DNA of 64,000 nt, taken from IMG/VR virus record IMGVR_UViG_3300033074_001348, positions 1 to 64,000 of that record, one strand, 5' to 3'. Below the pieces are notes generated by a model. It worked only from the letters and a program-made list of their open reading frames with translations. It was not told the DNA's origin and ran no database searches. Position 1 is the stretch's first letter, and each line of letters starts with the position of its first letter. Positions 28,660 through 53,716 of this stretch are shown piece after piece. The position numbers and the translations under genes were made by a program. The DNA comes from a virus. Taxonomy: Duplodnaviria > Caudoviricetes.

Positions 28660-29307
28660 ATGGCATTTCAACAATCATTTAAGATGAATCGTGCCTCGGA
28701 TGGGCTGAGTATCATCATTACCGACATTACCGGAGCCTATGATGCCACAACGAACCCAACCGGATACGGCGGCCCGAACCCGGCAGTAGGTGATTTTACT
28801 GCGCTTTCGTTATCGGTTTACCTGCCTGACCCCGTTACATTGCAACCCCAAACTACTCCGGTAGTCATTACGGCAATATACCCTACACTTCCTTCTGAAA
28901 CTAACGGCACCTATACCATTACTTCTACCGCACTGGCAGGAAGCGAGTCTGTGTTAATTGACGGGCTGTATCAGGGCGTAGTCAATGGAACCTATGACAT
29001 CGGGGCTGGCGATGTGGCTATTACGCCCATCACCATTTACAAGCTATTTTATTACATAGCCGAGTGTTGCTGGCAACAAAACAGGCTCGAAACATCGACC
29101 TGCGGTGATAAAGACAAGAACTATAAGCTCAATTTAGGAGGCGGACTGCTACTGCAATTGCAGCCCTACATTAATTCTGAGGCTGTCGTTACGGATAGCT
29201 ATATCGAGCAGTGCGGTGCATGGAACACCGGCGTCAATTTTGTCTTATATCTACAAGAAATTTGCAACGAATTTAACTGCGGAGGGGGCTGCGAGACATG
29301 TCACTAA
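28660..29307 (+). CDS. tail hub-like structural protein
   Basis: DITGAYDATTNPTGYG N-terminal motif, Ig-like body, Cys-rich C-terminus. Confidence 0.45.
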   Translation: MAFQQSFKMNRASDGLSIIITDITGAYDATTNPTGYGGPNPAVGDFTALSLSVYLPDPVTLQPQTTPVVITAIYPTLPSETNGTYTITSTALAGSESVLIDGLYQGVVNGTYDIGAGDVAITPITIYKLFYYIAECCWQQNRLETSTCGDKDKNYKLNLGGGLLLQLQPYINSEAVVTDSYIEQCGAWNTGVNFVLYLQEICNEFNCGGGCETCH

Positions 29308-34732: not shown

Positions 34733-34858
34733 ATGAAAAAGATTTTAATAGCCATTTTTGCCATACCATTTATGCTCCTGTATAGCATTTTTCTATTTGC
34801 TTGCGGGGTTAGTGCGTCTACTCAAAACAAAACCGATCAATACGACATCTATCTATGA
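34733..34858 (+). CDS. 41-aa membrane peptide, possible lipoprotein
   Basis: MKKILIAIFAIPFMLLYSIFLFAC... hydrophobic stretch ending in a lipobox-like FAC; coupled to the next gene. Confidence 0.4.
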   Translation: MKKILIAIFAIPFMLLYSIFLFACGVSASTQNKTDQYDIYL

Positions 34859-36189
34859 AAAAAACCATCACCATCTTTATTCTGCTCTTTGTTGCATACT
34901 TCGCAGCACAGAGTCAATCTGTCAGGGACGAATATTTTAAAATCGTTGGAAAGCCGACTATTGTTGCGCCCACATTAGGCTCTTACTCGGTTGACTTTAC
35001 CAACAAACAAGTTTGGCGATCCACCTCTAAAACTACCGCACAATGGACGCTTGAAACAGATACCAATATTATTAAAATGTACCTCGGTGGACGGGATGGA
35101 AAAGATGGCGCAGTTGGGCCACAAGGTCCTGCCGGTCGGGACGGAGTTTGTCCAAGTTGCCCTCCAACGAGCGGTGGTGGTATGTCATTCCCTTATAATA
35201 TAGTCGTTGGCACTGGTGATGATGCAGCTACCATGAATGCTGCTATCGCTGCTAACGTGAGTAACAACAAACCAATTTACTTAGTTGGCAATATAAATAC
35301 AGGCATTTTAACAGTTCCTAAAAATGCTTTTCGGCTCACCATAATTGGTTACGGGTCAAAATGGTACGGTGGATTAAAGCGCACTACACCCGCAAATAAT
35401 GGAGAGGCAAACGAATACATTGTCGCTCGCTTCATCATTGAAGGAATCGAATTTGTGGGAAGTCAAAATCAGGTCGCTTTGGATTTAGGGGCATCTTACA
35501 TGAGCGCATACCGTGATTTAAAGTTTGACGGATTTTTGGAAGCGATACATCTGAGATTTGCTCTGAGAACATTAATTGAAAACTGCGAGGCGGTTAATTG
35601 CGTCAACGGATTTATTGCAGACATGGGAAATTGGACGGGTGCGGATAATGCAAACAGTCAATCCAATCACACCACATTTACTGATTGCCGTGCTTATATG
35701 CCATCCAATGGTCAAGTGGCATACGGAATTTATGCAGCTTCCGGTTGCGTGGTTCGGGATTGTATCATTGAAGGATTTGTCGTATCAAAGGGAATTGATT
35801 TTAACGGTAGAAACTCCAATGTGGTTAAAGATTTTACCATTGAAAACGTGCATTTTGAATGTGTGAATGGTGCGACAACCGCATTTATCAACATAGAATC
35901 ATTTGCCGGTGGTACAGTAACTATTAATAAGGCATTTGGGCAACACGCTTCGATGTTTCTAAAAGCAAATAGCACATCAGGACTTGGATTTGTTGACATT
36001 TCCAACGTTCCGTGGTGGGTTGCAAAAGGCGGTAAATATTTCAATACTTCAAATATTACTTTAAACTTTAAATACAACGAAGCATTCAGAGGAATAAACG
36101 CCTCTATGTGGGAAGGTACAGCCCCACAATTATGCGGTGGAAGTGGATGCGGTTACAACCGTTACACCTACACCGATATACCCCGTTAA
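34855..36189 (+). CDS. signal-peptide + collagen-like + beta-helix (pectate lyase-like) protein
   Basis: MKKTITIFILLFVAYFAAQSQS signal peptide, Gly-X-Y triplets (GRDGKDGAVGPQGPAGRDG), beta-helix similar to the tail spike C-terminus. Confidence 0.65.
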   Translation: MKKTITIFILLFVAYFAAQSQSVRDEYFKIVGKPTIVAPTLGSYSVDFTNKQVWRSTSKTTAQWTLETDTNIIKMYLGGRDGKDGAVGPQGPAGRDGVCPSCPPTSGGGMSFPYNIVVGTGDDAATMNAAIAANVSNNKPIYLVGNINTGILTVPKNAFRLTIIGYGSKWYGGLKRTTPANNGEANEYIVARFIIEGIEFVGSQNQVALDLGASYMSAYRDLKFDGFLEAIHLRFALRTLIENCEAVNCVNGFIADMGNWTGADNANSQSNHTTFTDCRAYMPSNGQVAYGIYAASGCVVRDCIIEGFVVSKGIDFNGRNSNVVKDFTIENVHFECVNGATTAFINIESFAGGTVTINKAFGQHASMFLKANSTSGLGFVDISNVPWWVAKGGKYFNTSNITLNFKYNEAFRGINASMWEGTAPQLCGGSGCGYNRYTYTDIPR

Positions 36190-36224
36190 TTATCATACAC
36201 TAACCCCTCAACACCCCCTGTTAG

Positions 36225-36539
36225 ATGGCGTGGCGTATGTCAAAAGAAGCAACTGAGAAAGGAGGCGAATGGCTCTACCGTGCTGTCATGGCTGCGTTCG
36301 TCGTTTCTATGTGGACAAAAATCGACTCTATCGCTGTGATCGAGTCAAGGGTATCTACTCTTGAGCGAAGAACAGATAAGATTGAGGACGCTTTATTTGC
36401 TCCTGCCTTTGATCGTAAAAAACGCATGGAGTCGCATCTTCGTGAGACGGACTCTGTGTATAATGTTTACGTGGAGAATCTTAACGACTCTCAGCATCAA
36501 CTTATTTTGATAGACAGCCTGCTTACTGCATCTAACTAA
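36225..36539 (+). CDS. single-TM lysis-region protein
   Basis: One hydrophobic segment then coiled coil (IESRVSTLERR), upstream of holin. Confidence 0.45.
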   Translation: MAWRMSKEATEKGGEWLYRAVMAAFVVSMWTKIDSIAVIESRVSTLERRTDKIEDALFAPAFDRKKRMESHLRETDSVYNVYVENLNDSQHQLILIDSLLTASN

Positions 36540-36559
36540 CCATTAAAACTATAAAAACT

Positions 36560-36979
36560 ATGAAAACAATTATTGCAATTATTAAGGCTGCGCTCACAAA
36601 GTTCAGCATGATTAACATGACGCAATTTATCGGTATTGCTACCCTGATTGTGTCTTCGTGGCAAGGGGCAAATCTGATTAGCGCATCGGCTGTGCTGCTC
36701 ATTACTTCTGCACTGACGCTCATTCTGAAATTATGGCAAAGCACCAAAGAGCTCGTATCAACCGGCTATCAAATGGACTGGGCGGTATGGCTATCAGGTA
36801 TTGGTGGCTTGGTGATAGGCTTCGTTGATAGCTTCATTACTGACGGCAGCATTATGTCGTGGCTATTTGGGGATAAAGCGAATATTGCTTTAATGATTTA
36901 TATGGCCATTACGATCATACTCCGAACCGGCTTCTCTAACCAGTCCGTCAATTCAGTAAGTGCCCGTAAAGCACGATGA
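36560..36979 (+). CDS. putative holin
   Basis: 139 aa, about 4 hydrophobic segments, basic C-terminus, in the lysis cluster. Confidence 0.6.
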   Translation: MKTIIAIIKAALTKFSMINMTQFIGIATLIVSSWQGANLISASAVLLITSALTLILKLWQSTKELVSTGYQMDWAVWLSGIGGLVIGFVDSFITDGSIMSWLFGDKANIALMIYMAITIILRTGFSNQSVNSVSARKAR

Positions 36980-37527
36980 AGGGTTGGATTCCTCTGACCA
37001 TAACAGGAGTGGTAGCAATATTGTTCCTGTTATGGTACTTTGATCCAAAGGGTAGGTTTACCGAGAAGGTGGACTCAAGAGATACTACTGTCATCAATCT
37101 GCCTCCGGTATCCATATCCATTCCACCCTCTTCGGCTCCATCCATCATCTATCAACCCATTCCGGCAAACGTAGACTCTCTTGCTATTGTAAGGGATTAC
37201 TTTGCCATGCGATCCTATGCCGATAGCAGCGAGAACGATACGGTGAAGATTATGGTGTATGAAAAGGTAGGGCAGAACAAAATTATTGACAGGAGGCTTG
37301 ACTGGAAGTTAAAAATACCGATTACGACTGTAATAGAGCAGCACACAGCGTCAAGAAGGATGCTGCTGATTGGCGGGTCGGTTTACAGGGATAGTCTTAC
37401 CACAGGGCTTTATTTTAACGCTGCGTACAAAAACAAAAGGGATTGGATGTTTATTGGAGGATACGATCCTTTTACAAAAACTGGCATGGGCGGAGTGCTG
37501 ATGCCGATAAAATTAAGAACAGATTAA
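36976..37527 (+). CDS. putative spanin-like protein
   Basis: N-terminal TM, Pro-rich linker, C-terminal beta strands; between holin and endolysin. Confidence 0.45.
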   Translation: MKGWIPLTITGVVAILFLLWYFDPKGRFTEKVDSRDTTVINLPPVSISIPPSSAPSIIYQPIPANVDSLAIVRDYFAMRSYADSSENDTVKIMVYEKVGQNKIIDRRLDWKLKIPITTVIEQHTASRRMLLIGGSVYRDSLTTGLYFNAAYKNKRDWMFIGGYDPFTKTGMGGVLMPIKLRTD

Positions 37528-37540
37528 AACTGGGAGGGGT

Positions 37541-38023
37541 ATGGCAACAGACAGAAAGAAAATTATCGCTGAGTTTGGCGATCCGAGGGCAGACGAAAAG
37601 GCCTTTGTAAAAAAATGGATGGTGGTTTTTAATATCGGTAATCATTTTCCGTCACTACCGTTCAAAAAAGTTTATGTCAATTCGGTGTTGATACCACCAA
37701 TTATTGAGACATTCAAATTACTTTCCACAAGAGGTCTGCTTGGCGAGATCAAAAAATATGACGGCTGTTTTTTGGTTCGGTGCATCAGGGGTTATGAAAA
37801 TCCGTGTGTCCCATCTATTCATTCATGGGGCTTGGCGATTGATTTTAACGCATCAGACAACCCGCTTGGATTAAGCCGTGAGCAATGTATCAAAAAGGGA
37901 TTAAAGCCGTTCTCAGAGGCATTTTTTCAGGTATGGAGAGAAACAGGTTGGGTGGTAGGTTATGACTTTAGCCGTAAAGACGGGATGCACTTTCAATGGA
38001 CTAAGAAGTGGGACACCGCTTAA
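37541..38023 (+). CDS. endolysin, M15 family peptidase
   Basis: SIHSWGLAIDFN and DGMHFQ zinc-binding motifs. Confidence 0.85.
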   Translation: MATDRKKIIAEFGDPRADEKAFVKKWMVVFNIGNHFPSLPFKKVYVNSVLIPPIIETFKLLSTRGLLGEIKKYDGCFLVRCIRGYENPCVPSIHSWGLAIDFNASDNPLGLSREQCIKKGLKPFSEAFFQVWRETGWVVGYDFSRKDGMHFQWTKKWDTA

Positions 38024-38057
38024 AACCGAGAAGGTGTTTCTGAATGTGGTGAAGGGG

Positions 38058-38126
38058 TAATATCACGAACCTTTAACTGGTTGCAAATAAGCCTGTTGAA
38101 GATAAAGCTTCGTATATCTGATGTTA
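38058..38126 (+). repeat. 69-bp direct repeat copy 1 (attI-like anchor of cassette array 1)
   Basis: Identical to 44467-44535; identity ends at GTTA. Confidence 0.9.
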
Positions 38127-38135
38127 TACACAACC

Positions 38136-38879
38136 TTAAAAAGACAGCGTTCCAATTGAAAGTTTTTGACTAATTCTATGGATTGCTTTGTCGTAATAAA
38201 ATGTGTCTTTTTCAATTCCTGTAAGGTGCAAATTCATTTTATCCAATTTGTTTACCTTATCAACCGCCAACGCTATTGAACCACTACCAAAATGCGTATC
38301 AATGATTTTATCACCATTGTTAGCATAGTTTTTCAAAAGCCATTCATAAAGCTGTATTGGTTTTTCGTTGGGGTGTATGCGTTCTTGCTTTTCTTTCATA
38401 TTTTGCTGAAGCATTCCGTGCCATTTCCATTTAAACTTTCTTACCGCTGTTTTAAATGAAGTCCAAGCAAGCTCACAATCGGCAAAATCATTGTTCCCGT
38501 TTTCTTTATCCCAAACTATCCAGCAACTACTATCAATAGGTAATTTTGAAATAAAATGATTTGCACCCCAAACAATTTGATTTTTAGAAATTCTGCGTAA
38601 TTCATTCCAATATTCAGATTCAGGAGCTGTTAAATCATTTCCTGAATAAGCCTTATAATCTTTGCTTTTTGCCATTACGCTACGAGTGTGATTTTTTGAG
38701 CCATCTTCGCCAATTCCATACGGAACATCTACTATTGCTAAATCAAATTGTTTATCCTCAAAATCTCGCATTTTATCCAAGCAATCCGAAAGATATACGT
38801 CCAAAAAAGGCTGTGTATAACATCGGTTTGCCGTAATGGCGGTTGAAGTGCTACTATTGAGCTTTTGTGCTGTATTCAT
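38136..38879 (-). CDS. DNA methyltransferase, N6/N4 family (cassette 1)
   Basis: DLAIVDVPYG (motif IV variant), HPNEKP, IIDTHFGSGS (motif I). Confidence 0.85.
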   Translation of the reverse strand: MNTAQKLNSSTSTAITANRCYTQPFLDVYLSDCLDKMRDFEDKQFDLAIVDVPYGIGEDGSKNHTRSVMAKSKDYKAYSGNDLTAPESEYWNELRRISKNQIVWGANHFISKLPIDSSCWIVWDKENGNNDFADCELAWTSFKTAVRKFKWKWHGMLQQNMKEKQERIHPNEKPIQLYEWLLKNYANNGDKIIDTHFGSGSIALAVDKVNKLDKMNLHLTGIEKDTFYYDKAIHRISQKLSIGTLSF

Positions 38880-38948
38880 CTTTTCTACTTTTATTTAACT
38901 TTTGTACTAAATTGTCCGCCACTAACGGCAAGCCGTGAACCGTTAGGC
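38815..38948 (+). repeat. attC-like site E1
   Basis: GTATAAC...GGTTTGCCGTAATGGCGG / CCGCCACTAACGGCAAGCC...GTTAGGC. Confidence 0.8.
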
Positions 38949-38957
38949 GTAATGCCA

Positions 38958-39581
38958 TTAGCGTATCCATTCAATAGTTGGTTTGCCGACATAATCCTTG
39001 TCCCAAACATACCAAGCATAAGCAATCATACCGCTATTCTTCATTTTTACCCCACCTTTGTATAAAGTAACTCGTTTGCTAAATTGGTAAACAGTTTTTA
39101 GAGGAAATTCCTTGTCCTGAAACATCTCATATCTGCTCTCACTTTCCAACCAAACAGTTTTTAAAAACATAGCAATCTTCTTTCTACCTTGCTTTTTTGC
39201 TTTCAATACAAAGTCAAGTGCTAATTTGTAAGGTGGGTTTGTAACTATGTTATCAGCAACTAAATCACTTTGCAAAAAATCAAGTTGTTCACCATATCCT
39301 CTATTTATCAAGTCGGTGCTAATAACTTCAAATCCTTTGTTTTTAAAAACTTCGCTTATATCTCCTTCGCCACAAGCACATTCCCAAATATTTCCGCTAA
39401 AAACTTCTCGTTTCAAAAGTTCTTCTACTGCATAAGGTGGTGTGGGGTAAAAATCCTCCGCTTCACGTTCTCCATTATTTCTGCTCGAACCAACTATTGA
39501 TAGAGCTTTCGTGGAAGGCACTACGCCTAACACGGGTTTGGCAAAATTGCCGTTTTCGTTTTCAAATAAACTTTCTGTCAT
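38958..39581 (-). CDS. adenine DNA methyltransferase (cassette 2)
   Basis: DFYPTP, WECACGEG motif I, IVTNPPY motif IV. Confidence 0.85.
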   Translation of the reverse strand: MTESLFENENGNFAKPVLGVVPSTKALSIVGSSRNNGEREAEDFYPTPPYAVEELLKREVFSGNIWECACGEGDISEVFKNKGFEVISTDLINRGYGEQLDFLQSDLVADNIVTNPPYKLALDFVLKAKKQGRKKIAMFLKTVWLESESRYEMFQDKEFPLKTVYQFSKRVTLYKGGVKMKNSGMIAYAWYVWDKDYVGKPTIEWIR

Positions 39582-39650
39582 AATATCATCTTTTGTTTTT
39601 CAATTTAACTTTTGTGTTCGGCAACTTCGCCAAGCCCGATACCGTTAGCG
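39525..39650 (+). repeat. attC-like site E2
   Basis: GCCTAAC-A-CGGGTTTGGCAAAATTGCCG / CGGCAACTTCGCCAAGCCCG-ATACC-GTTAGCG. Confidence 0.85.
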
Positions 39651-39668
39651 GTAATGCCAACAGACACC

Positions 39669-40169
39669 CTAAAATGGCAATCCATCGGACGGACTTTTAT
39701 TGTCATCATAATTTATTTTAGGCAACCTATCAGGGTTATCAAAAATATTTCCATCTACCTGCATATCACTACCGAAATAATCAATCATTGGAACTAAACT
39801 GCTATGGTTTTTGTAGTAAGAATTATCAATGCACCAACATCCAGTATCTTTATTGTAAACAACAGGATAATAACCAACAATTTTATTTCCTTCTTCGTCC
39901 GTTTCTTCATCTCTTAAAAAATCGCCTTCATAAATTAAGTTGCCAGCCCTATCTGAAACCATTGTGCAAATTGATATTCCAGTAGTATAGCTATCTACTA
40001 AAATATGGTCGCCAGTTCCAAGTTCTTCATTATCTCTTACTATGAAGTTTTGGTTTACGCCTCTATCGCAATTATTGTATAAGTCGCCAAAAACCCATAA
40101 TCCGTTTGACTTTGCTCTGTAATGTGTATTTATCATTTGTTTAAATTTAATCATTTTAACAAGGCACAT
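39669..40169 (-). CDS. YopX family protein (cassette 3)
   Basis: WVFGDL, DRAGNLIYEGD, VDGNIFDNPDRL. Confidence 0.75.
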   Translation of the reverse strand: MCLVKMIKFKQMINTHYRAKSNGLWVFGDLYNNCDRGVNQNFIVRDNEELGTGDHILVDSYTTGISICTMVSDRAGNLIYEGDFLRDEETDEEGNKIVGYYPVVYNKDTGCWCIDNSYYKNHSSLVPMIDYFGSDMQVDGNIFDNPDRLPKINYDDNKSPSDGLPF

Positions 40170-40171
40170 AC

Positions 40172-40302
40172 CGCTAACATAGTGTTGCCAAAATGGGGGC
40201 AGAAGTGCATTTAATGAACATTTGTACTGTGTTCAGCAGTAGTGCTTTTAATGGGTTTTTGTGCTATAAATCCCCCACTTCGGCAACACTCGACCGTTAT
40301 GA
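40172..40302 (+). repeat. attC-like site E3
   Basis: CGCTAAC-AT-AGTGTTGCCAAAATGGGGG / CCCCCACTTCGGCAACACT-CGACC-GTTATGA. Confidence 0.85.
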
Positions 40303-40515
40303 GAAATGCTCAGACTGAACTTCCTCAATCAAGTAAAACTTCTCCCACATACTTTTTGCCCACTCTTCGGCTTGGTGTCTATGTTGAAACACCGCTATAA
40401 TTTTATTACTCCCAATATCCAAACGTTCTGCATCTGGAATGACTGCAAAAGCACTTCTCATAACAGCCGTTTGCTGCAATGGCGGGTTCTGTGGTAAATT
40501 TGATGTTTCTTGCAT
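40297..40515 (-). CDS. hypothetical protein (cassette 4)
   Basis: Stop TAA is the TTA of the GTTA core; starts in the E4 loop, alternative ATG at 40461. Confidence 0.6.
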   Translation of the reverse strand: MQETSNLPQNPPLQQTAVMRSAFAVIPDAERLDIGSNKIIAVFQHRHQAEEWAKSMWEKFYLIEEVQSEHFS

Positions 40516-40589
40516 TTTATTAAATTTTGTGGTTAAACGAAAGTCAGTGCTTGTAATCCGCCACTGGCAGCAATGCTTTTACGTTATGA
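40458..40589 (+). repeat. attC-like site E4
   Basis: TCATAAC...TTGCTGCAATGGCGG / CCGCCACTGGCAGCAA...GTTATGA. Confidence 0.8.
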
Positions 40590-40620
40590 GAAATTTTAAA
40601 AACCTTTCCCCCGCACCGTT

Positions 40621-41004
40621 CTAATCATCATCTTGCGTTGACAAAGAAAATGTTTCACCATCTTCAATATTCATAATTTTGACACCGCAAGAACCGTATT
40701 CAGCAATCCACATTGGGGTATTTTCATCCATATAAAAATCACCGCCTTTGTATCCCGTAAAAGTTTGTCCTAAACATTCATTTTTTAGTTGTTCAACCAA
40801 ACTTGCAACGGTTCTTGTTCCGCTTCCTTTTTCAAGTGCTAAATCTGAATAATATCCACGATATGAATGTGGTTCACATACGTTTTCAATTTCTTTGTCT
40901 TGTGGTAGTTTTTCAAGTTCTGAAATAAATCTACCAAGTGTCATTTGTGATAAAGAACGTTCTGCTCTCCATCCTTTGCTTAATTCATTAAATAATTCTT
41001 GCAT
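40621..41004 (-). CDS. hypothetical phage protein (cassette 5)
   Basis: MTLGRFISELEKLP...PHSYRGYYSDLA...GYKGGDF; start set at ATG 41004. Confidence 0.65.
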   Translation of the reverse strand: MQELFNELSKGWRAERSLSQMTLGRFISELEKLPQDKEIENVCEPHSYRGYYSDLALEKGSGTRTVASLVEQLKNECLGQTFTGYKGGDFYMDENTPMWIAEYGSCGVKIMNIEDGETFSLSTQDDD

Positions 41005-41052
41005 AATATTTTGTTTTTTAAATGCCCACCCTAAAAGGTTTTTAAAACTATC

Positions 41053-41146
41053 CCATAACACGGGTTTGGCAAAATGCCGCAGGACAGTTAGTGCTAAATT
41101 TCAAGTTTCAAGTAGCGGCACTTCGCAAAGCCCGAAACCGTTATGT
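41053..41146 (+). repeat. attC-like site E5 (94-bp class)
   Basis: CCATAAC-A-CGGGTTTGGCAAAATGCCGC / GCGGCACTTCGCAAAGCCCG-AAACC-GTTATGT. Confidence 0.85.
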
Positions 41147-41158
41147 GAGATTGCTAAA

Positions 41159-41377
41159 TTATCGTTTATAATAATGTTTTCTAACACCTAAACCTTCTGA
41201 TTTTAAATGCTTAAAATTTAATCTTTCTTTTAAGTTATCAAATTGTCTTGAGGTAATGCTGTGTTTTTTAATATCATTTGAATTTCTTAATTCATAAATA
41301 GTTCTTTTATTATATTGTATCTGTACTAAAACATCATTATCTTCTAATAATTTTTCTAATTCTTTTATTGTCATCAC
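41159..41377 (-). CDS. hypothetical protein (cassette 6)
   Basis: 72 aa, fills the space between E5 and E6. Confidence 0.6.
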   Translation of the reverse strand: MMTIKELEKLLEDNDVLVQIQYNKRTIYELRNSNDIKKHSITSRQFDNLKERLNFKHLKSEGLGVRKHYYKR

Positions 41378-41403
41378 ATTTTGTTTTAAAAACCCACAAC
41401 CTC

Positions 41404-41536
41404 ACATAACAAGTGTTTGGCAAAAAAGCGGGTTCGGTTATTAATTTAATGTTTGTTTTATATTTGAATGTTTAGTAATTAATCGGAAATTCCGTTTTTT
41501 CTTTCCGCTTCTTCGCCAAGCACTCGGACGTTACCT
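41404..41536 (+). repeat. attC-like site E6
   Basis: ACATAAC-A-AGTGTTTGGCAAAAAAGCGG / CCGCTTCTTCGCCAAGCACT-CGGAC-GTTACCT. Confidence 0.85.
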
Positions 41537-41908
41537 GCTACCTTTCAGACGCTCAATTTCGGAAAGCAGACTATCAACGATTAACAGGCTTTTTTCAACC
41601 CACTCAACAGGCACATCGTCCTCTAAAAATTTCTTATGGGTTTCAGTATAGTGGTCGTGGCTAATTAAACCAAGTGAACAAACCAGCCCTTTGCTATCAG
41701 GTGCAGTTAATGCCCAATGCTTCAAACTAAATTCCCTGCCAGTTCTTGAATTGACATAGGGCAATTCATAGCATTTATGCCACTTCCAACTATCAGGTAA
41801 TTGATTTCTGAGTTTCATAATTTCCTCTACCGATAAGGCAGCAGGTAACACGGGTTTGGCAAAATCGGGGCTTCCGGCTTCATTTGAAATTATTTCTTTC
41901 TCTTTCAT
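41531..41908 (-). CDS. hypothetical protein (cassette 7)
   Basis: Stop in the GTTA core; N-terminus ...DFAKPVLP read through the left arm of half-site E7. Confidence 0.6.
   Translation of the reverse strand: MKEKEIISNEAGSPDFAKPVLPAALSVEEIMKLRNQLPDSWKWHKCYELPYVNSRTGREFSLKHWALTAPDSKGLVCSLGLISHDHYTETHKKFLEDDVPVEWVEKSLLIVDSLLSEIERLKGSR
41843..41908 (+). repeat. truncated attC-like half site E7
   Basis: Left arm TAACACGGGTTTGGCAAAAT identical to E2/E5; no right arm found. Confidence 0.7.
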
Positions 41909-41919
41909 TGGTGAGGTTA

Positions 41920-42156
41920 TTATCTTGAATGATACGGCGACATATAAGGATATTTGTAAGTTATATAAGTATTAAAATCACAAGGCATGACACCAATAAA
42001 CTGCGTAGGTTGAGAATCTTCATACTTACGCCTTTTATCAATAATTGATGCTATTTTTGAATTAACACCCATTAAATCGCCATCGTAAAATCGAACTAAA
42101 ATATAGGGATTAGCAGCACACGCTTTCCTTAATTGACCTACTGTTAAAGTTTTCAT
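41920..42156 (-). CDS. hypothetical protein
   Basis: 78 aa from ATG 42156 (MKTLTVGQLRK). Confidence 0.55.
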   Translation of the reverse strand: MKTLTVGQLRKACAANPYILVRFYDGDLMGVNSKIASIIDKRRKYEDSQPTQFIGVMPCDFNTYITYKYPYMSPYHSR

Positions 42157-42205
42157 CTCATTTATTTTAAACAACCCCAAAGCCAGAACGATGGGGGTGG
42201 GTTAG

Positions 42206-42442
42206 TTAGTAATTTATTACAATTTCAGTTTCGGTAACTTCTTTTATTTTAGGTCGGGCGTTCCTTGCTTCAATTACACAAGGAACTAAAACCATCTCTT
42301 CATACCAAACATCATCGTTTTTATTCATATTAAATCCCTTGTATCTATTGTCAGCACCAAACAAAGTAATATATTTTCCGTCATATTCTAAACGGTAATC
42401 ACCTGCGTAATGCGGTAATATTGGTAGTCTTACTTCTTTCAT
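42206..42442 (-). CDS. hypothetical protein
   Basis: 78 aa from ATG 42442 (MKEVRLP). Confidence 0.55.
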   Translation of the reverse strand: MKEVRLPILPHYAGDYRLEYDGKYITLFGADNRYKGFNMNKNDDVWYEEMVLVPCVIEARNARPKIKEVTETEIVINY

Positions 42443-42495
42443 AATTTTAGTATAAATAACAAACCCCCAAGCCAAAGACAAGAGGGCTTGTCGGG

Positions 42496-42915
42496 TTAGT
42501 CTTCGTTAAAAAAATCTTCTATATTAGGATTGTTATTCCAGTTTTCGATCTTACCGTTTTCATCAATTTTAACAACGATATAATCCCCGTAAGACTCTCG
42601 ATATAAATCCAATATATTGGGAACATAACCGTCTTTTGTAAGAACGGTATTACCTTCTGAATCCAATAAGTGGTAAATCCCATCATCGCAAACTTTGTAA
42701 TGAACATCAGCAGTGACACCTTTCTTCCAATTTGTAATAATTCCAGAATCAATATCAATATTTAATTTCCATCGATCCATTTCTTTGCATGGGATTAAAT
42801 CGCCATGTAAATCATCGACTCCATTAATTGAGCCGTCTTCCCAGTAGCGTACACCTGCATCCACTAACAAGGTTTTAATTTCGACTTCCTTTTCGATTTT
42901 GATTTTTGCTTTCAT
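42496..42915 (-). CDS. conserved hypothetical phage protein
   Basis: 139 aa; VRYWEDGSING...VHYKVCDDG...YVP...YGDYI...IDENGKIENW. Confidence 0.65.
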   Translation of the reverse strand: MKAKIKIEKEVEIKTLLVDAGVRYWEDGSINGVDDLHGDLIPCKEMDRWKLNIDIDSGIITNWKKGVTADVHYKVCDDGIYHLLDSEGNTVLTKDGYVPNILDLYRESYGDYIVVKIDENGKIENWNNNPNIEDFFNED

Positions 42916-43031
42916 AGTAAATGTATAAACAACGAACCCCTCTAAGCCGGGAAGACAGAGAGGGGTTCAGTATGTGAATTAGGCTGATCGCCTGAGATTC
43001 CAATTTGGTGCATCTTCCCGGATTGCAGGGG

Positions 43032-43039
43032 CAAATATA
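43032..43039 (-). promoter_or_regulatory. TAnnTTTG promoter element (leftward)
   Basis: CAAATATA = TATATTTG on the minus strand, back-to-back with a rightward element. Confidence 0.55.
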
Positions 43040-43061
43040 CAAACAATTGTATAAGAAACAA

Positions 43062-43069
43062 TACATTTG
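43062..43069 (+). promoter_or_regulatory. TAnnTTTG promoter element (rightward)
   Basis: TACATTTG upstream of ATG 43084. Confidence 0.55.
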
Positions 43070-43083
43070 TAAAAAAAAATAAC

Positions 43084-44469
43084 ATGAAACTTAAAATCCT
43101 CGCAGCATCCTTTATTATCGGCTTGTCGGTTGTAACTTATAATGCAGTAAACTACGACCCCGTTCCATCCATTATAGAAGCACTCAGGGAAGGCAAGTCC
43201 GTAACGCTCGACTCTGGGGTGGTTTACAATTTTACGGGCTATAAGAACCTCCCAGTAACATCGGAATTTAACTTGAATGGGGCAACTATTAAAGCCGATT
43301 CGATGCTCCAAGCCGAATTTAATGACAACCAATACTTATTTTTATTGGATGGCGGCTACATTCATTCTGGAGCAATTATCGGCGCATCAGGCAAGGTGTA
43401 CAATGCTAAGGCGGGGTATTTTGGGGCTATTCAGGTAATGACGGGTGGTAAAATAAGGTCGGTAAACTTTAAGAATTGCGACAAATGGGCTATTCGGGTC
43501 TTTGGTGATCGATGGTCACATAATGACACAACCTTTATTACATCATGCGTTTTCGATTCAATACCTCGTGACGGATCGGGATATGGTACATGGAATCAGC
43601 ATGGTGTGGTTATAGTCGATTCCTGTAAATTCAATTTCCTGCGTCATGCTTTTGATTGTGGTAGTGAAGGTAACTTAACGGTAATTCAAAACTGCGAGTT
43701 TCGTAATTGCTTTTACATTCCAATTCATCAGCATCGGTATGTAGGTGATTCGGTCGGGGTTGGATTGACGGTGCGTAATTGTAAGTTTTACGATACCTAC
43801 ATGCCCCTTGATATTGGATTGCCGTTTAAAGGCATGAACAGAATTGATAGCAACTATTTTGCCGGCAACTATATTGGTCGCATGGGTCGTGATACGATAC
43901 CCATTGGCACAAACTATATGAACGGTAAAGGCATGATATCTGCTCCTGAAATTATTGGAAGAAATAGCTATAAGGTGGGCGAGAAAATGTCACTAAAGAT
44001 TGACAAGACTGGTTTTTGGAATAACGGTGTAACGAACAGGCAGACGACAACTACATTCAATTATCCAATGGTAAAAGTCTATAGCGTTCACACGGGTGGC
44101 ATTGCTGACACCATGACCGTTATTTGCTCTGATACGGGAATCTATACGTCCATGCGGGTTTTAGCAACCTGCGATATTGAATTTTGGAGTGGCGATAAAG
44201 CGGTTGGAGTGGTGAAAAAAGGAAAGGCGTATGACTATAAATTTTACTACTTCAAGGCGGATGTCAAGATCAAAATTAAAGGCAATCTTATAGGTGTAGA
44301 TCGGGCGACATTCAACGTGGCAGACGGTTATAGGGCGTTACGGGTTCGTACGAATGTCGGGGTGCTGCATCTTGATAATCTATGCTACAACGGATGGTAT
44401 GACACCTATGAGTTTGGACTTAAGACGAAGGTCAAGCAAGTGGGTGAGTGGGTGGAGGTCGGGAAATAA
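43084..44469 (+). CDS. exported right-handed beta-helix protein (polysaccharide lyase-like)
   Basis: N-terminal hydrophobic MKLKILAASFIIGLSVV, beta-helix repeats (ITSCVFD, VDSCKFN, IQNCEFR, VRNCKFY); stop TAA is the first 3 nt of repeat copy 2. Confidence 0.7.
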   Translation: MKLKILAASFIIGLSVVTYNAVNYDPVPSIIEALREGKSVTLDSGVVYNFTGYKNLPVTSEFNLNGATIKADSMLQAEFNDNQYLFLLDGGYIHSGAIIGASGKVYNAKAGYFGAIQVMTGGKIRSVNFKNCDKWAIRVFGDRWSHNDTTFITSCVFDSIPRDGSGYGTWNQHGVVIVDSCKFNFLRHAFDCGSEGNLTVIQNCEFRNCFYIPIHQHRYVGDSVGVGLTVRNCKFYDTYMPLDIGLPFKGMNRIDSNYFAGNYIGRMGRDTIPIGTNYMNGKGMISAPEIIGRNSYKVGEKMSLKIDKTGFWNNGVTNRQTTTTFNYPMVKVYSVHTGGIADTMTVICSDTGIYTSMRVLATCDIEFWSGDKAVGVVKKGKAYDYKFYYFKADVKIKIKGNLIGVDRATFNVADGYRALRVRTNVGVLHLDNLCYNGWYDTYEFGLKTKVKQVGEWVEVGK

Positions 44470-44535
44470 TATCACGAACCTTTAACTGGTTGCAAATAAG
44501 CCTGTTGAAGATAAAGCTTCGTATATCTGATGTTA
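44467..44535 (+). repeat. 69-bp direct repeat copy 2 (attI-like anchor of cassette array 2)
   Basis: Identical to 38058-38126. Confidence 0.9.
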
Positions 44536-44544
44536 GCCGCAAGC

Positions 44545-44793
44545 CTAAGCGACATCGTAACTAATAGTTAGGTTTGACATTGCCTCAATTGTAAAAAGCA
44601 ACTGACCTGCCACATCATAACCATTGTAAACTGTTATCGTAAGGTCGTTATGATACCCTTTGCCGATAGTCTTTTCTTCTTCTTTAATTTCGTGTATCTT
44701 ATCGCCAAATGCAGCATATTGGTACTTGTCGTTTACGGCAAAGTAAGTTGAGCCTTCGCCAGTTCCTTTTTCAATTGATTTTATTCGTTTCAT
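44545..44793 (-). CDS. hypothetical protein (cassette 8)
   Basis: 82 aa; similar to 3438-3653. Confidence 0.6.
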   Translation of the reverse strand: MKRIKSIEKGTGEGSTYFAVNDKYQYAAFGDKIHEIKEEEKTIGKGYHNDLTITVYNGYDVAGQLLFTIEAMSNLTISYDVA

Positions 44794-44821
44794 TTTTATT
44801 TGTGTTGTGAGAAAGGCCAGC

Positions 44822-44915
44822 GGCTAACAGCGGTTTTGCGTCAGGCGGCAGACAGTTGGTGCAAACTTGAAACATCCTATAAGCCGCCCGAACGCAAAGC
44901 CGCAAAACGTTATCG
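44822..44915 (+). repeat. attC-like site E8 (94-bp class)
   Basis: GGCTAAC-A-GCGGTTTTGCGTCAGGCGGC / GCCGCCCGAACGCAAAGCCGC-AAAAC-GTTATCG. Confidence 0.85.
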
Positions 44916-45245
44916 GCTATTTAGAAAATCCCAAAGTTCACCAGCATTTGACATTGGAATATTTTTACCATTATCTGTAACTTTTAAACGATAGTTTTCT
45001 TGTCCAAAATCTAATTCCCAACAGAAATACTCAATCCAACTTTGACCCATTGGACAAAGTGCAGTATCATTCATTGCGACTTGCAAAACTTCTAATAAAG
45101 CATTTTGCAAGTAATGATTTTTAGGTAATAGATTAGCTGTAAAACTTTCGGGAAACGCTTTGCCTAAATTTTCAGAAACAGAAATATCATATTTAATTTG
45201 TTCCTGTATTGCTTCAATTGATTTTATAAAAAGTTGTTTATCCAT
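44910..45245 (-). CDS. hypothetical protein (cassette 9, gene 2)
   Basis: Stop in the GTTA core; WIEYFCWELDFG motif. Confidence 0.65.
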   Translation of the reverse strand: MDKQLFIKSIEAIQEQIKYDISVSENLGKAFPESFTANLLPKNHYLQNALLEVLQVAMNDTALCPMGQSWIEYFCWELDFGQENYRLKVTDNGKNIPMSNAGELWDFLNSR

Positions 45246-45489
45246 TTTTATCTTCTTTTAAGTGGTTATATTGACCAGTAGCGTATTGGTGCAAGTTAGT
45301 TTCGTTGTATAGGCTACAAATACTTGACAATGCTTCTAACTCATCATTATTATTTTCAATCCATTCATCAATACTTTCTTCCTCATCAAAAGCATCTTTA
45401 ACAGCAGCCTTTACACCTTTTCTGACAAAGTTTTTTATTGCTCTTAAATCCGATTTTGTTAATGTTACATTTACATATTCTAATTCCAT
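45238..45489 (-). CDS. hypothetical protein (cassette 9, gene 1)
   Basis: 83 aa, overlaps the next gene's start. Confidence 0.55.
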   Translation of the reverse strand: MELEYVNVTLTKSDLRAIKNFVRKGVKAAVKDAFDEEESIDEWIENNNDELEALSSICSLYNETNLHQYATGQYNHLKEDKNG

Positions 45490-45531
45490 ATTTTGACATT
45501 TTAATTTTAAAGTTTACGACTTAAAAACAGC

Positions 45532-45662
45532 CGATAACAAGGGTTTGAACGCAAGTGGGGCAGATGTGATACTATCAACATCAGTGGTTCATTCATCATT
45601 TGTACTACTATCAACATTAGTGCTACAAATCCCCACCTGCGTCAAGCCCAAAAACGTTAAGT
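45532..45662 (+). repeat. attC-like site E9
   Basis: CGATAAC-AA-GGGTTTGAACGCAAGTGGGG / CCCCACCTGCGTCAAGCCC-AAAAAC-GTTAAGT. Confidence 0.8.
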
Positions 45663-45701
45663 GCAATAAAATTTTTAATAATTATTTTTCCCACCGCACA
45701 G

Positions 45702-45974
45702 TTAAAAGTTAGGAGTGTTAATTTTAAATGGAATATCTACTCCTAATTCCATCAGTCTCGACCTTGCGTCCCTTATTGTTATCTCCGCATCCGTAATTTG
45801 ATTTTTAAGGTTTTCGATTTCTTCTTCGGTTTGTATTTCGTCGGTTTCCATGTCTCCGCATCTTCTACATATCACAGTATCGGGAAACCACTTAACTGAT
45901 TCAGTACCTTCATACAGCTCAAATATTTCACCGCATTTCTGGCACGGTGTAGGCATTTCAAATTCTTTTTTCAT
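45702..45974 (-). CDS. zinc-finger + coiled-coil protein
   Basis: CQKC...CRRC then heptad repeats. Confidence 0.55.
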   Translation of the reverse strand: MKKEFEMPTPCQKCGEIFELYEGTESVKWFPDTVICRRCGDMETDEIQTEEEIENLKNQITDAEITIRDARSRLMELGVDIPFKINTPNF

Positions 45975-45997
45975 CTTCTCAATTTTTAGCTATTAGG

Positions 45998-46246
45998 TTA
46001 TGGTTTAAACCCATCCTGTCTTTCGCCTGTAACCTGAAAGTATTTACTTGGCTCAGACTTCAGCCACAAACAAAGCTTTACGAAGGTTTCCATGTCAAAG
46101 GATTTTCGGTTTTCTATTCTTGAAATGGTCGAGGCTGAAACTCCTGCAATTTTAGCAGCTTCACGGATTGTTGTTTCAAGTTCAATTACCCTTTGAGTTA
46201 TCAGGTCTTTTCGGAATAGGTCGTAGTTAAATTTCAGGTCTTTCAT
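45998..46246 (-). CDS. XRE-family HTH regulator
   Basis: TIREAAKIAGVSASTISRIEN. Confidence 0.8.
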   Translation of the reverse strand: MKDLKFNYDLFRKDLITQRVIELETTIREAAKIAGVSASTISRIENRKSFDMETFVKLCLWLKSEPSKYFQVTGERQDGFKP

Positions 46247-46249
46247 AGG

Positions 46250-46861
46250 TTATGGTTTGGGTTGTAGGGAATCTAACAATTTTTGAACCTTATCAATCCA
46301 ATCTTTACACATTTTAACAGCCCATCCCGGTAAATGCGTTCCTCTTTGAATTTTTAAGTGCTGTTCATGCTGATAAATTAATCCTTTTACAAACACACCT
46401 GATTGCTCTAAATATGATGCACTCGATCTAAAATTATCTACTTTTAAAACAGTGATAAATTCCTCAATTTCAAGTACTGCTTTTTTATAGTTATCAAGCA
46501 CTTCAAATTCCGTTGTACGCTTAATTAATTTTACGGATTCCTCCAAAGCAGATAGTAATGGATTTTCCTGCGAATACAGTTCTAATGGCACATATTCAGG
46601 CTCATCTATTTTTGCGTTCTCCTCCCCGACCATTTTCTTTAAAATCGCAATGCCTTCGGATAGGGGGAGGATGCGGGTGAATAGAGTTAAAGCTAATTTC
46701 TCATCACTCAACCACCAATATCTATTGTAAATGTCGAAGCCCCAAAAACAGTCAGTAATGATGTCGTGATGTCCACTTGCTTTTTTAAACAGAGGAATAA
46801 AAGCTACTAATTCATCTGTTGTACCGCTGCGCATGTCGCAGCAGAATGGTTGTGTTTTCAT
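46250..46861 (-). CDS. hypothetical protein
   Basis: 203-aa ORF in a coupled leftward operon. Confidence 0.5.
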   Translation of the reverse strand: MKTQPFCCDMRSGTTDELVAFIPLFKKASGHHDIITDCFWGFDIYNRYWWLSDEKLALTLFTRILPLSEGIAILKKMVGEENAKIDEPEYVPLELYSQENPLLSALEESVKLIKRTTEFEVLDNYKKAVLEIEEFITVLKVDNFRSSASYLEQSGVFVKGLIYQHEQHLKIQRGTHLPGWAVKMCKDWIDKVQKLLDSLQPKP

Positions 46862-47061
46862 GATTTATAAATTATAAATGTGAATAGGATTAATATTGCA
46901 ACTATACCCATCATCATCAAATTAACTGCGAGGTATCTACTGTATGAACCAAATTTCTGACCAAGCCACTTCCCAAAAGAGAATAGCGGACATGATAATA
47001 TTAAAATGATATATAAAATAAGCAGTAAAGCAAACTCAGCTATCAATAATGGTTGTGTCAT
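46858..47061 (-). CDS. small two-TM membrane protein
   Basis: Two hydrophobic segments in 67 aa. Confidence 0.5.
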   Translation of the reverse strand: MTQPLLIAEFALLLILYIILILSCPLFSFGKWLGQKFGSYSRYLAVNLMMMGIVAILILFTFIIYKS

Positions 47062-47171
47062 AACTTCATTTTTTTATCGTGTGCATAACACCATCCATCC
47101 AACAGTTTCGTCACGCCAAACTCCTGTAAATCCGTATGCCTTTCTACCTTTTGGAACTTTAATTTTCTTGC

Positions 47172-47378
47172 TCATACCCTCCCTTTCCTCCTCCCTTTAT
47201 TTATCATTCTCACAATACGGCACTCGCTCAACCCTGTGAGTTCTGATATTTTCCATACGTCCTCCATTCGGATTCTTCCGGGGTCTTCAAAAAGTCGGTA
47301 AACTTGCCTCCTTGAAACTTTAAGTTCTTTGGCAAACTGGTTTATGGTGAGCTGCTTTGTTATGAATTTTTTGAGCAT
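47172..47378 (-). CDS. HTH DNA-binding protein
   Basis: TINQFAKELKVSRRQVYRLFED. Confidence 0.7.
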   Translation of the reverse strand: MLKKFITKQLTINQFAKELKVSRRQVYRLFEDPGRIRMEDVWKISELTGLSECRIVRMINKGRRKGRV

Positions 47379-47382
47379 AGGG

Positions 47383-48114
47383 TTAATAATTTTTAGCCAG
47401 TTGATTTATTACTTCTGATCCGTAAGCGTTTTTGGTAAGATTAATAAATTTGTGTACAGTCATTTTATCGCTCAGGTCGATGTCATGCTCTTTTATGAAA
47501 TTATCTTTCCCAATAGAACAACTTCCCGTCAAAGTGGTGTGCCACTTATAAAACTCAGATGCTAAATATTCGTCCGTTCCATTAAATTGCGCAATAAAAT
47601 CAGCAATTCGATCTTCAAGTGGGCGATTCTCATTATACTTCTGTTGAGCCTCCGAAATTGCTTTTTCTATTGTTTCCCCATGCGCAAAGAAATTACCTAC
47701 TTTGGCGATATAGCAGTCTTGTAAGGTCAAATCACTTTTAATGATTGCACCTTTAGCAACTTGCCCCTTTACAGAATAAATAATAGTTGGAACGCCATCA
47801 ATGTAATGAACGGGATAGTTGGTGTATTTTTTTAAGTCGTAACCGTCACCGGAACCGTAACCGGAACCGGAACCGTCACCGGAACCGTAACCGTAACCGG
47901 AACCGGAACCGTAACCGTCACCGTAACCGTCACCGGAACCGTCACCGGAACCGTAACCGTAACCGTCACCGGAACCGTCACCGGAACCGTCACCGGAACC
48001 GTAACCGGAACCGGAACCGTAACCGTCACCGTAACCGTCACCGGAACCGTAACCGGAACCGTAACCGGAACCGTCACCGTCACTTACTTTCAAAAACTCT
48101 GTTATTGCTTCCAT
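47383..48114 (-). CDS. (S/Y/D)-Gly repeat phage protein
   Basis: Start at ATG 48114; GDGSGYG repeats then WHTTLTGSC C-terminal domain. Confidence 0.7.
   Translation of the reverse strand: MEAITEFLKVSDGDGSGYGSGYGSGDGYGDGYGSGSGYGSGDGSGDGSGDGYGYGSGDGSGDGYGDGYGSGSGYGYGSGDGSGSGYGSGDGYDLKKYTNYPVHYIDGVPTIIYSVKGQVAKGAIIKSDLTLQDCYIAKVGNFFAHGETIEKAISEAQQKYNENRPLEDRIADFIAQFNGTDEYLASEFYKWHTTLTGSCSIGKDNFIKEHDIDLSDKMTVHKFINLTKNAYGSEVINQLAKNY
47839..48084 (-). repeat. in-frame 6-bp tandem repeat (~41 units)
   Basis: Units GTAACC/GTCACC/GGAACC on +, encoding YG/DG/SG on -. Confidence 0.9.
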
Positions 48115-53041: not shown

Positions 53042-53716
53042 TTAAGGTGTCGTGCATGGTGCCTCTATTCTCTGTATAAGCCTCCAAACAGTTGATGCGC
53101 TCCATTTGCCACCTTTTGAGGTATGGAACCCTTTGTTATTGAGCTCCTCTGCAACTTTATCATAGGCAAGACCCTGCTTTTTGAGCAGTGTGGCGTGTGC
53201 TGCTGCTCGTTCGTTGTCGGGAGAGAGTCGGGCTTTCTCTGCCTGTACTCTTGCGCCAATGACACGACCGGATTGACTAAATTTTTCAGGATTACCCAAT
53301 GCGACGCCTTGCTTTTTGAGCGCCATTAGTGCTGCTTTGGTTCTGATGGAGATGAGCTCCCGCTCCCTCTCGGCAAAAGCAAAGTAAAGGGTTAGCATGA
53401 ACCGGTCAGGTTTGCCGGGTAGGTCGCAAAACTCAATTTGACCGGGTAGCCAATCAAGTACCGTCAGTCCATCTTTTACATCACGGCTCAATCTGTCTAC
53501 TTTAGCGACTACAAGCGTATAGCCGTTTGTTTTGCAGCACTCAATCGCCTGTTTTAGTATGGGTCGGTCGGTAATGGTTTTAGCCGATTCCACTTCGATA
53601 AATTCCTGTTCTAATTCAGGGTAGAAACGGGCAACAATTTGCTGCTGCGCTTCCAGTCCCAGTCCTGAGTCCCCCTGCTTCTTGGTGGATACTCGGTAGT
53701 ATGCTACGTATTTCAT
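53042..53716 (-). CDS. serine recombinase (resolvase domain + short DNA-binding C-terminus)
   Basis: YYRVSTKKQ catalytic Ser, DRPIL, VVAKVDRLSR, FAERERELISIRTKA. Confidence 0.9.
   Translation of the reverse strand: MKYVAYYRVSTKKQGDSGLGLEAQQQIVARFYPELEQEFIEVESAKTITDRPILKQAIECCKTNGYTLVVAKVDRLSRDVKDGLTVLDWLPGQIEFCDLPGKPDRFMLTLYFAFAERERELISIRTKAALMALKKQGVALGNPEKFSQSGRVIGARVQAEKARLSPDNERAAAHATLLKKQGLAYDKVAEELNNKGFHTSKGGKWSASTVWRLIQRIEAPCTTP

Follow-up and report, generated by a model that had tools for sequence, protein, structure and literature searches.

Two orphan arrays of integron-like gene cassettes in a phage genome belong to a large family found in Bacteroidota and their phages

We analyzed the first 64 kb, hereafter called the window, of the 77,312-bp IMG/VR record IMGVR_UViG_3300033074_001348, a Caudoviricetes genome rated as complete by CheckV, and found that nine small gene units in two arrays at positions 38056-45659 are orphan members of a large integron-like cassette system that occurs in Bacteroidota as well as in their phages. 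This membership is well supported, as the hairpin sites, the pairing of the outer boxes across each unit with a mismatch at position 11 and the unit boundaries at G/TTA (the slash marks the break) are all present in the window. We consider it likely that the two arrays consist of integron-type mobile cassettes of a system specific to Bacteroidota and their phages, which a Xer-like enzyme would move in trans.

The region contains eight full sites of the form TAACA-arm-loop-arm-CGTTA, 88-128 nucleotides (nt) each, and one half site with the left arm and the loop only (41846-41908) at the distal end of array 1. A different element, E1, is present in two 100% identical 69-nt copies (38056-38126 and 44467-44535) and forms only a weak hairpin. 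The sites and the E1 copies bound the nine units, seven in array 1 and two in array 2, as listed below with their open reading frames (ORFs), where each full site runs from the start of its TAAC to the end of its GTTA.

38056..38126, plus strand: E1a, putative attI-like docking element, left end of array 1
38124..38942, minus strand: cassette 1, N6/N4 DNA methyltransferase (ORF 38136-38879; full site 1, 38818-38945)
38943..39644, minus strand: cassette 2, DNA methyltransferase (ORF 38958-39581, phrog_799 at 3.9e-63; full site 2, 39528-39647)
39645..40296, minus strand: cassette 3, YopX-like protein (ORF 39669-40169, PF09643; full site 3, 40175-40299)
40297..40583, minus strand: cassette 4, ORF of 72 amino acids (aa) that starts in the loop (ORF 40297-40515; full site 4, 40461-40586)
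40584..41140, minus strand: cassette 5, phrog_12889 protein (ORF 40621-41061; full site 5, short, 41056-41143)
41141..41530, minus strand: cassette 6, 72-aa ORF (ORF 41159-41377; full site 6, 41407-41533)
41531..41908, minus strand: cassette 7, 125-aa ORF (ORF 41531-41908; half site 41846-41908)
44467..44535, plus strand: E1b, second E1 copy, left end of array 2, directly after the 461-aa plus-strand gene
44533..44909, minus strand: cassette 8, 82-aa ORF (ORF 44545-44793; full site 7, short, 44825-44912)
44910..45656, minus strand: cassette 9, two ORFs (44910-45245, phrog_28377, and 45238-45489; full site 8, 45535-45659)

In the alignment of the eight full sites of the window, the inner stem has 18 pairs, with compensatory double changes in 13 of them, and the spacer is 1 nt long on one arm and 5 nt on the other. 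Three of the sites have an identical 20-nt left arm in common. Across each gene, the 11-15 nt outside one GTTA match, as reverse complement, the bases outside the following TAAC; they are not the complement of those outside the TAAC of their own site. The boxes of cassette 1 pair at 14 of 15 positions, and those of cassette 3 pair with a 1-nt indel. Counting from the C of AAC, the base at position 11 is C at the end of every one of the nine units, and the reverse complement of the start has T there. Using a strict scan for GTTA followed by 11 nt and, further on, 11 nt followed by TAAC, with the mismatch at position 11, we detected seven units, all on the plus strand within the region, versus a mean of 0.1 units on shuffled genomes; the remaining two units miss the scan by a 1-nt indel in the box alone. 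A sequence-only reading of this DNA had proposed eight full sites and one half site, and nine units in two arrays whose ends pair with each other and not with their neighbours. All its site positions and its division into units hold in our analysis, and the six pairs of unit starts and ends that it quoted are correct. The genes of all nine units lie on the minus strand, antisense to the TAACA...CGTTA strand.

The window sites belong to a large family. We built a covariance model, R1, from the eight window sites, which themselves score 67-124 bits (122.5 for the site of cassette 1 and 107.2 for that of cassette 3), within the range of the viral and bacterial matches. Applying such a model to other loci was a check suggested along with the sequence-only reading, and R1 identified 333 sites in 80 viral loci and 115 sites in 49 bacterial loci, frequently grouped into arrays of 7-13 sites, so that a large family spanning Bacteroidota and phages emerged. 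A 20-base pattern taken from three window sites has at least 120 matches in the viral collection and at least 120 in the collection of species-representative genomes. Among the genome matches listed, nearly all titled records are Bacteroidota, including Flavobacterium, Chitinophaga, Algoriphagus, Chryseobacterium, Riemerella, Cytophagales and Sphingobacteriales. Close relatives of the phage itself are few: the near-identity search of the phage collection returned as its sole match an 81% identical methyltransferase fragment in Nonlabens phage P12024L, and the protein-anchored search for relatives returned a single related contig (L001/L122).

The signature of the window units is general in this family. 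In 297 site pairs, an average of 8.0 out of 11 outer-box positions pair across the unit, versus 3.6 of 11 in the same-site control, and position 11 pairs in just 2% of them. On the TAACA...CGTTA strand, the base at this position, following GTTA and six further bases, is A in 293 of 296 units (which corresponds to T on the reverse complement), and its partner at the unit end is C in 239 cases, G in 36, A in 14 and T in 7. Since the partner can be C, G or A but is hardly ever T, position 11 is an obligatory mismatch rather than a mere wobble. The invariant bases of the sites are the AAC and GTT triplets within TAACA and CGTTA, and the site length is bimodal, at about 125 nt and about 85 nt. One cluster of 45 cores, each 112 nt long and 85-96% identical to one another, is joined to differing boxes and genes.

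The loops have features of their own. The long loops contain two or three direct repeats of a (T/A)GTGCTAAAnTTnAA-like motif, e.g. at 38845-38920, 40205-40270 and 45565-45630 in the window and at 6760-6835 in the bacterial locus L252, and the short sites contain a single copy. The motif is conserved between phage and bacterial sites, and the repeats may bind the recombinase or an accessory protein. We also observed short hairpins with the loop motif CATTAAAACGA at ~2360-2400 in L257, ~2390-2430 in L259, ~600-650 in L007 and 30005-30060 in Polaribacter phage P12002L (L123). They include 'empty cassettes' (GTTA, box, CATTAAAACGA, box', TAAC) adjoining the recombinase, as well as the site P12002L_attC1 of Qi et al., and may represent a second site class or the seed from which cassettes form.

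Cassettes of the window recur in other phages with precise ends. Cassette 2 is found in L019 with 97.6% identity over the unit (94% over 724 nt by blastn, unit plus core), and cassette 6 in L054 with 93% identity over the unit (88% over 424 nt by blastn, unit plus core). In both cases the shared homology extends from the upstream G/TTA through the gene, its TAAC and the whole next core up to the GTTA of that core, and beyond the shared cassette the 24-kb and 36-kb records of L019 and L054 contain nothing resembling the 30-50 kb region of the window. The closest relative, L001, has two units where the window has seven, and no second array. The sequence-only reading had named a fixed gene order without gains or losses at G/TT as the outcome that would speak against cassettes; L019, L054 and L001 contradict such an order and support the cassettes.

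The flanks of similar cores tell the same boundary. Among pairs of cores at least 85% identical in the viral loci, 55 share only the left flank, none shares only the right flank and five share both. The crossover itself can be narrowed down to the shared CGTTA and no further. Another 588 core pairs, mostly from the 45-member cluster, share neither flank. Because the breaks fall at G/TTA and the flanks are inherited on one side, a cassette on the TAACA...CGTTA strand consists of TTA, box, gene, box', TAAC, core and G, the same layout as in integrons. The other possible layout, in which the hairpin 3' of a gene is part of its cassette, is ruled out by the count of 55 to 0. When cassette 2 was circularized in silico, its site folded into one continuous hairpin, with -25.0 kcal/mol for the site strand and -29.6 kcal/mol for the gene-sense strand.

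A tyrosine recombinase is linked to these arrays with a strict polarity. The best IntI-like match adjoins an array in three of five bacterial genomes, and of the 49 viral records with arrays, nine have a homolog at 36-48% identity. The recombinase is located directly left of the array in all five whole viral records examined, and in all 14 loci that hold both it lies to the left of all sites, the closest of which is 0.5-2.2 kb away. In phages the enzyme has 266-281 aa. That of Arundinibacter roseus (L252, 3224-5281) has 558 aa, of which ~285 form an N-terminal extension without a family match. The family retains the catalytic residues R, K, HxxR, H and Y, and the closest solved structures are archaeal XerA proteins. 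The family profile aligns to IntI4 (2a3v) in two pieces, between which 24 profile positions stand against 66 IntI4 residues, and therefore the I2-bearing insert is absent. The enzyme scores 209 bits on TIGR02249, whose cut-off is 265, and falls below the NCBIfam cut-offs for both IntI and XerA; no match to TIGR02249 above the cut-off was found in any genome examined. In Arundinibacter the recombinase is directly followed by an ssb gene, located before the first cassette; the single-strand binding protein SSB is known to govern how attC folds in classical integrons (PMC5737091).

Where an array adjoins the recombinase, the junction at which its first cassette starts reads ...ATAT-n-GAT(A/C)/GTTA. 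E1a starts at the stop codon of the endolysin gene and ends with ...GTATATCTGAT/GTTA, and the sequences at E1a and E1b part ways directly after GTTA. As this 3' end resembles the junction and lies at the same end of both arrays, we infer that E1 is an attI-like docking site. In the window E1 holds the array-end position that is taken elsewhere by the recombinase, and it was found in no other fetched locus.

The orientation of the genes differs between bacteria and phages. In bacterial contigs the gene lies on the TAACA...CGTTA strand in 53 of 62 units (85%), with the recombinase mostly on the same strand, whereas in viral contigs 215 of 234 units (92%) are antisense to that strand, and so is the recombinase. 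Bacteria and phages agree in having the recombinase co-directional with the cassette genes. With the phage genes inverted, the hairpin is located 5' of its gene in phages. In 90 of 162 non-redundant phage cassettes with long sites, a loop ATG is open through the arm in the frame of the gene, compared to five and five in the other two frames, and short sites show no such frame pattern. Cassettes 1, 2, 4 and 7 of the window (ATG at 38879, 39581, 40515 and 41908, respectively) follow the pattern, and between the window and L019 the loop centre of cassette 2 has diverged while the in-frame ATG is kept in both. The homology of the two window methyltransferases to known families starts only at residue 25-29, so that the hairpin arm would contribute a leader of variable sequence, ~20 residues in length. 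Judging from these frames, many phage cassette genes appear to start inside the hairpin loop.

These frames could also suggest that the hairpins are intercistronic elements acting in polycistronic early mRNA, in its processing, its stability or the start of translation, with no mobility of the DNA; the paired ends of a unit would then close each cistron after processing. In favour of this, the genes on either side of a site are co-transcribed, folding is stronger for the gene-sense strand than for the site strand, with a G·U-type wobble at position 11, and the loop ATGs are in frame with the genes. However, the same sites in bacteria are turned the other way relative to their genes (53 of 62 sense), the breaks between unrelated phages are cassette-precise, and a recombinase is linked to the arrays with its strict polarity. 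In addition, no Rfam match was found in the window at 36000-48000 with E up to 1. We regard this explanation as very unlikely, and consider a secondary role in translation alongside recombination possible.

The window cassettes carry genes for two DNA methyltransferases and a YopX-like protein, members of two PHROG families without a known function, and four small ORFs lacking matches, among them the ORF of cassette 4, for which the protein-family searches gave no match. The phage-type content noted earlier from the sequence (methyltransferases and YopX) is borne out by the matches to PF01555 (cassette 1, together with phrog_23224), phrog_799 and PF09643. A random sample of 140 ORFs from phage cassettes contains 30 N6/N4 methylases and at least nine enzymes of other types, i.e. 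MT-A70, C5, D12, Dam, Mom and a TET-associated glycosyltransferase, giving at least 39 DNA-modification enzymes in total. The 72 bacterial cassette ORFs (loci L124-L243 and L252) include four GmrSD modification-dependent restriction enzymes, along with C5 methylases, DarT, a RiboL-PSP HEPN protein, the toxins HigB and ParE and parts of type I restriction-modification systems. The restriction and toxin cargo of the bacteria is the counterpart of the DNA-modification cargo of the phages.

In the mechanism that we favour, recombination between the G/TTA of two sites would release a circle. Within this circle the outer boxes would pair and make the hairpin longer by ~15 bp, with the invariant A at position 11 staying mismatched, and the substrate would probably be a folded single strand. 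The circle would then be inserted at the G/TTA of another site or of an attI-like site, here E1. The enzyme would be a compact Xer/XerA-like tyrosine recombinase without the I2 insert of IntI, encoded at the attI end of the array by the hosts and by about a fifth of the array-bearing phage records, and the window cassettes would move only when the host or a co-infecting phage supplies it.

A number of observations weigh against this mechanism. The window genome (77 kb) has no tyrosine recombinase, and the best hit of the family-enzyme profile among its six-frame ORFs has E = 0.27; the homolog is likewise missing from 22 of the 25 array-bearing viral records with a completeness of 90% or more. 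As the phage has no recombinase for its sites, the arrays are orphan and presumably served in trans. The capture and shuffling platform that the sequence-only reading had seen in this phage is hence supported as regards the mobility of the cassettes, but not as a self-sufficient platform. The half site is orthologous in L001 (~8965-9030), where it carries the same ~21-codon MKEKE... leader in front of a different gene: the leader is fused to the 125-aa protein in the window and to a DUF4326-like 160-aa protein in L001, and the comparison points to a replacement of the unit next to a retained half site. L007 and L061 have in common a core together with the unit on its right, with a break at TAAC, and the 45 near-identical cores bear different units. 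Such breaks at TAAC, and one core with many units, indicate that cassette genesis or homologous exchange within cores also occurs, and exchange within conserved cores is not predicted by a simple cassette model. Just five cassette families recur among the 303 cassettes, and no arrays in this sample share two or more cassettes. Excision, circles and insertion are proposed from comparing sequences, in which no empty site, circle or recombination event was seen directly. Finally, P12002L_attC1, the sole site of this family's shape for which an experiment exists, is the one site that failed to recombine with IntI1 in a study of phage sites (PMC9892861), although this failure says nothing about a Xer-like enzyme.

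Some of these observations would fit ordinary homologous recombination between conserved cores without any dedicated enzyme, as in the promoter early stem-loop (PeSL) modules. The cluster of 45 cores with different units, the 20-nt left arm identical in three window sites and the L001 half site with its different gene all agree with such exchange. But most cores keep their structure by compensatory changes and not their sequence, the one-sided breaks fall exactly at GTTA (55 to 0), the self-complementary ends and the fixed mismatch would have no explanation, and a dedicated recombinase is linked to the arrays. We think it unlikely that homologous recombination accounts for the arrays, while it probably serves as a secondary route.

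The phage's own small serine recombinase (53042-53716, minus strand, 224 aa, PF00239 at 82.7 bits) could be considered as the enzyme instead, being the sole site-specific recombinase found in the 77-kb genome and conserved in L001. It lies, however, ~8 kb from array 2 and is present in only two of the 49 array-bearing viral records and in none of the 25 with a completeness of 90% or more. To our knowledge, no serine recombinase uses folded hairpin sites. We rejected this candidate on its co-occurrence, and the chance that it moves the cassettes seems negligible. Mobile cassettes moved by a Xer-like tyrosine recombinase in trans thus stay our preferred explanation.

A wider reading goes beyond the window, and on this one we lean only slightly to the positive side: the arrays could represent a second, independent integron type common to Bacteroidota and their phages. 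In this type an I2-less Xer-like enzyme would be at work, and the mismatch in the long helix would serve as the structural landmark in place of the extrahelical bases. Hosts would stock the system with restriction, toxin and abortive-infection genes, while phages would stock an inverted version with DNA-modification genes whose frames start inside the hairpin. One system would then feed both sides of the arms race, and orphan arrays would be recharged whenever a phage meets the enzyme.

In the view of the integron field, the gain of the I2 helix by IntI was the step that enabled recombination of single-stranded hairpins (PMC7790495). If our wider reading is true, hairpin cassettes with an I2-less Xer-like enzyme would be either a second solution or the ancestral state. 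Integron-type capture would also extend to a phylum reported by standard tools as integron-free, and to virulent phages on a large scale. We speculate that the system may explain the fast turnover of anti-restriction and defence genes in the lineages of Bacteroidota and their phages, and the compact sites together with the enzyme could serve as a structure-specific recombination tool.

Two other features of the window lie near the arrays. G+C-rich inverted repeats, CCCCTCTAAGCCGGGAAGA / TCTTCCCGGATTGCAGGGG and CCCCAAAGCCAGAACGATGGGGG, are found at 42937-43031 and 42170-42210, between small early genes and in a divergent promoter region, and are kept in L001 at 9515-9552 and 9850-9945; they have the look of terminators or regulatory hairpins and seem to have no relation to the cassette sites. 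Two plus-strand proteins, of 461 aa (43084-44469) and 444 aa (34855-36189), lack a PHROG match, and their identity to the L001 counterparts is 72-88%. The gene of the former is the lone plus-strand gene between the arrays, flanked by its own promoter region and by E1b.

Compared with known systems, the family is most similar in design to classical integrons. Both have units of one or two genes, each with one imperfect palindrome that is kept in structure and not in sequence, with AAC...GTT triplets, an unpaired spacer and a variable loop. In both, the boundary is at the G/TT of the right-hand box, the first bases of a cassette pair with its own site, a tyrosine recombinase is located at one fixed end by an attI-like junction, and many arrays have no recombinase. 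The bacterial cargo with its defence and toxin genes is also shared with classical integrons, and the homogeneous cores across unrelated cassettes resemble the VCRs (Vibrio cholerae repeats) of the sedentary chromosomal integrons of Vibrio.

The differences are equally clear. The linked enzyme is XerA/Xer-like, 266-281 aa long and without the I2-bearing insert; only 34 of 421 sites (8%) fit RYYYAAC and 28 of 421 (7%) fit GTTRRRY, the R-box forms of classical attC; and an outer helix of ~15 bp with an obligatory mismatch at position 11 and a 1/5-nt spacer is foreign to attC. The loops carry two to three direct repeats of a GTGCTAAA-like motif, and the phage genes are inverted, with the site 5' of the gene and often with an in-frame ATG. 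The classical layout, i.e. the gene on the top strand with the site 3' of it, is seen in the bacterial arrays but not in the phage arrays, and the bacterial recombinase differs from the classical one in being co-directional with the cassettes. As the integrase, the R-box, the phage gene orientation and the extra site features all depart from the classical type, we call the system integron-like and not a classical integron.

The window could still be taken for a fragment of a classical integron, i.e. a cluster of attC sites that comes without an integron integrase (CALIN), with ordinary attC sites captured from and recombined by IntI. Descriptively the window has at least two sites within a few kb and no integrase nearby (seven plus two cassettes and no recombinase), the sites have the attC-like design, with the start of a unit pairing with its own end, and Qi et al. 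(2023) gave the name CALIN to the two attC-like sites with methyltransferase cassettes of Polaribacter phage P12002L (PMC9892861), which bears a diverged form of the unit signature. Against a CALIN stand the lack of any TIGR02249 match above the cut-off, the score of the linked enzyme and its missing I2 segment, the low R-box fit, the mismatched outer helix with its uneven spacer and the failure of P12002L_attC1 with IntI1. Moreover, Bacteroidota are among the clades for which Darracq et al. report that IntegronFinder detected no integrons (10.1101/2024.07.02.601686). One review does count this phylum among those with integrons (PMC8618304). Altogether we judge a classical CALIN to be improbable.

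The nearest published case is P12002L itself. Qi et al. listed 17 phage CALINs, none of which has more than four sites, read the P12002L sites as classical attC and tested IntI1 only (PMC9892861). P12002L is a virulent phage of Flavobacteriia that, like the window phage, has methyltransferase genes set between attC-like sites where late and early genes meet. The shape of P12002L_attC1 is TAACA...CGTTA, and the gp35 unit (29237-30011) shows the pairing of ends with the mismatch at position 11. A looser unit scan of P12002L detected seven units versus 0.8 by chance, in a diverged form of the signature, and R1 gave no match in this genome. These comparisons point to the P12002L sites as a diverged relative of the window family. 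The study by Qi et al. does not include the Xer-like recombinase, the family size, the inverted cassettes or the fixed mismatch (PMC9892861), and in a literature search that was not exhaustive we found no description of these four features.

Two further systems share parts of this design. The PeSL modules of T4-type phages are small accessory genes flanked by repeated stem-loops, lie in hyperplastic regions and are thought to be mobile as units. They are shuffled by the homology of their repeats, whereas the window family has covarying structure, breaks at G/TTA and a linked recombinase. The likeness to Xer/dif lies in the enzyme, which is closest to XerA, XerC and XerD, and the folded site would resemble two binding arms of ~11 bp around a short central region, as in Xer/dif. 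Escudero et al. (2020) discussed I2-less Xer enzymes acting on folded single-stranded DNA (PMC7790495). Unlike dif sites and the elements that use Xer, such as the CTX phage, the family described here combines many gene cassettes, an attI-like end and outer boxes that are specific to each cassette.

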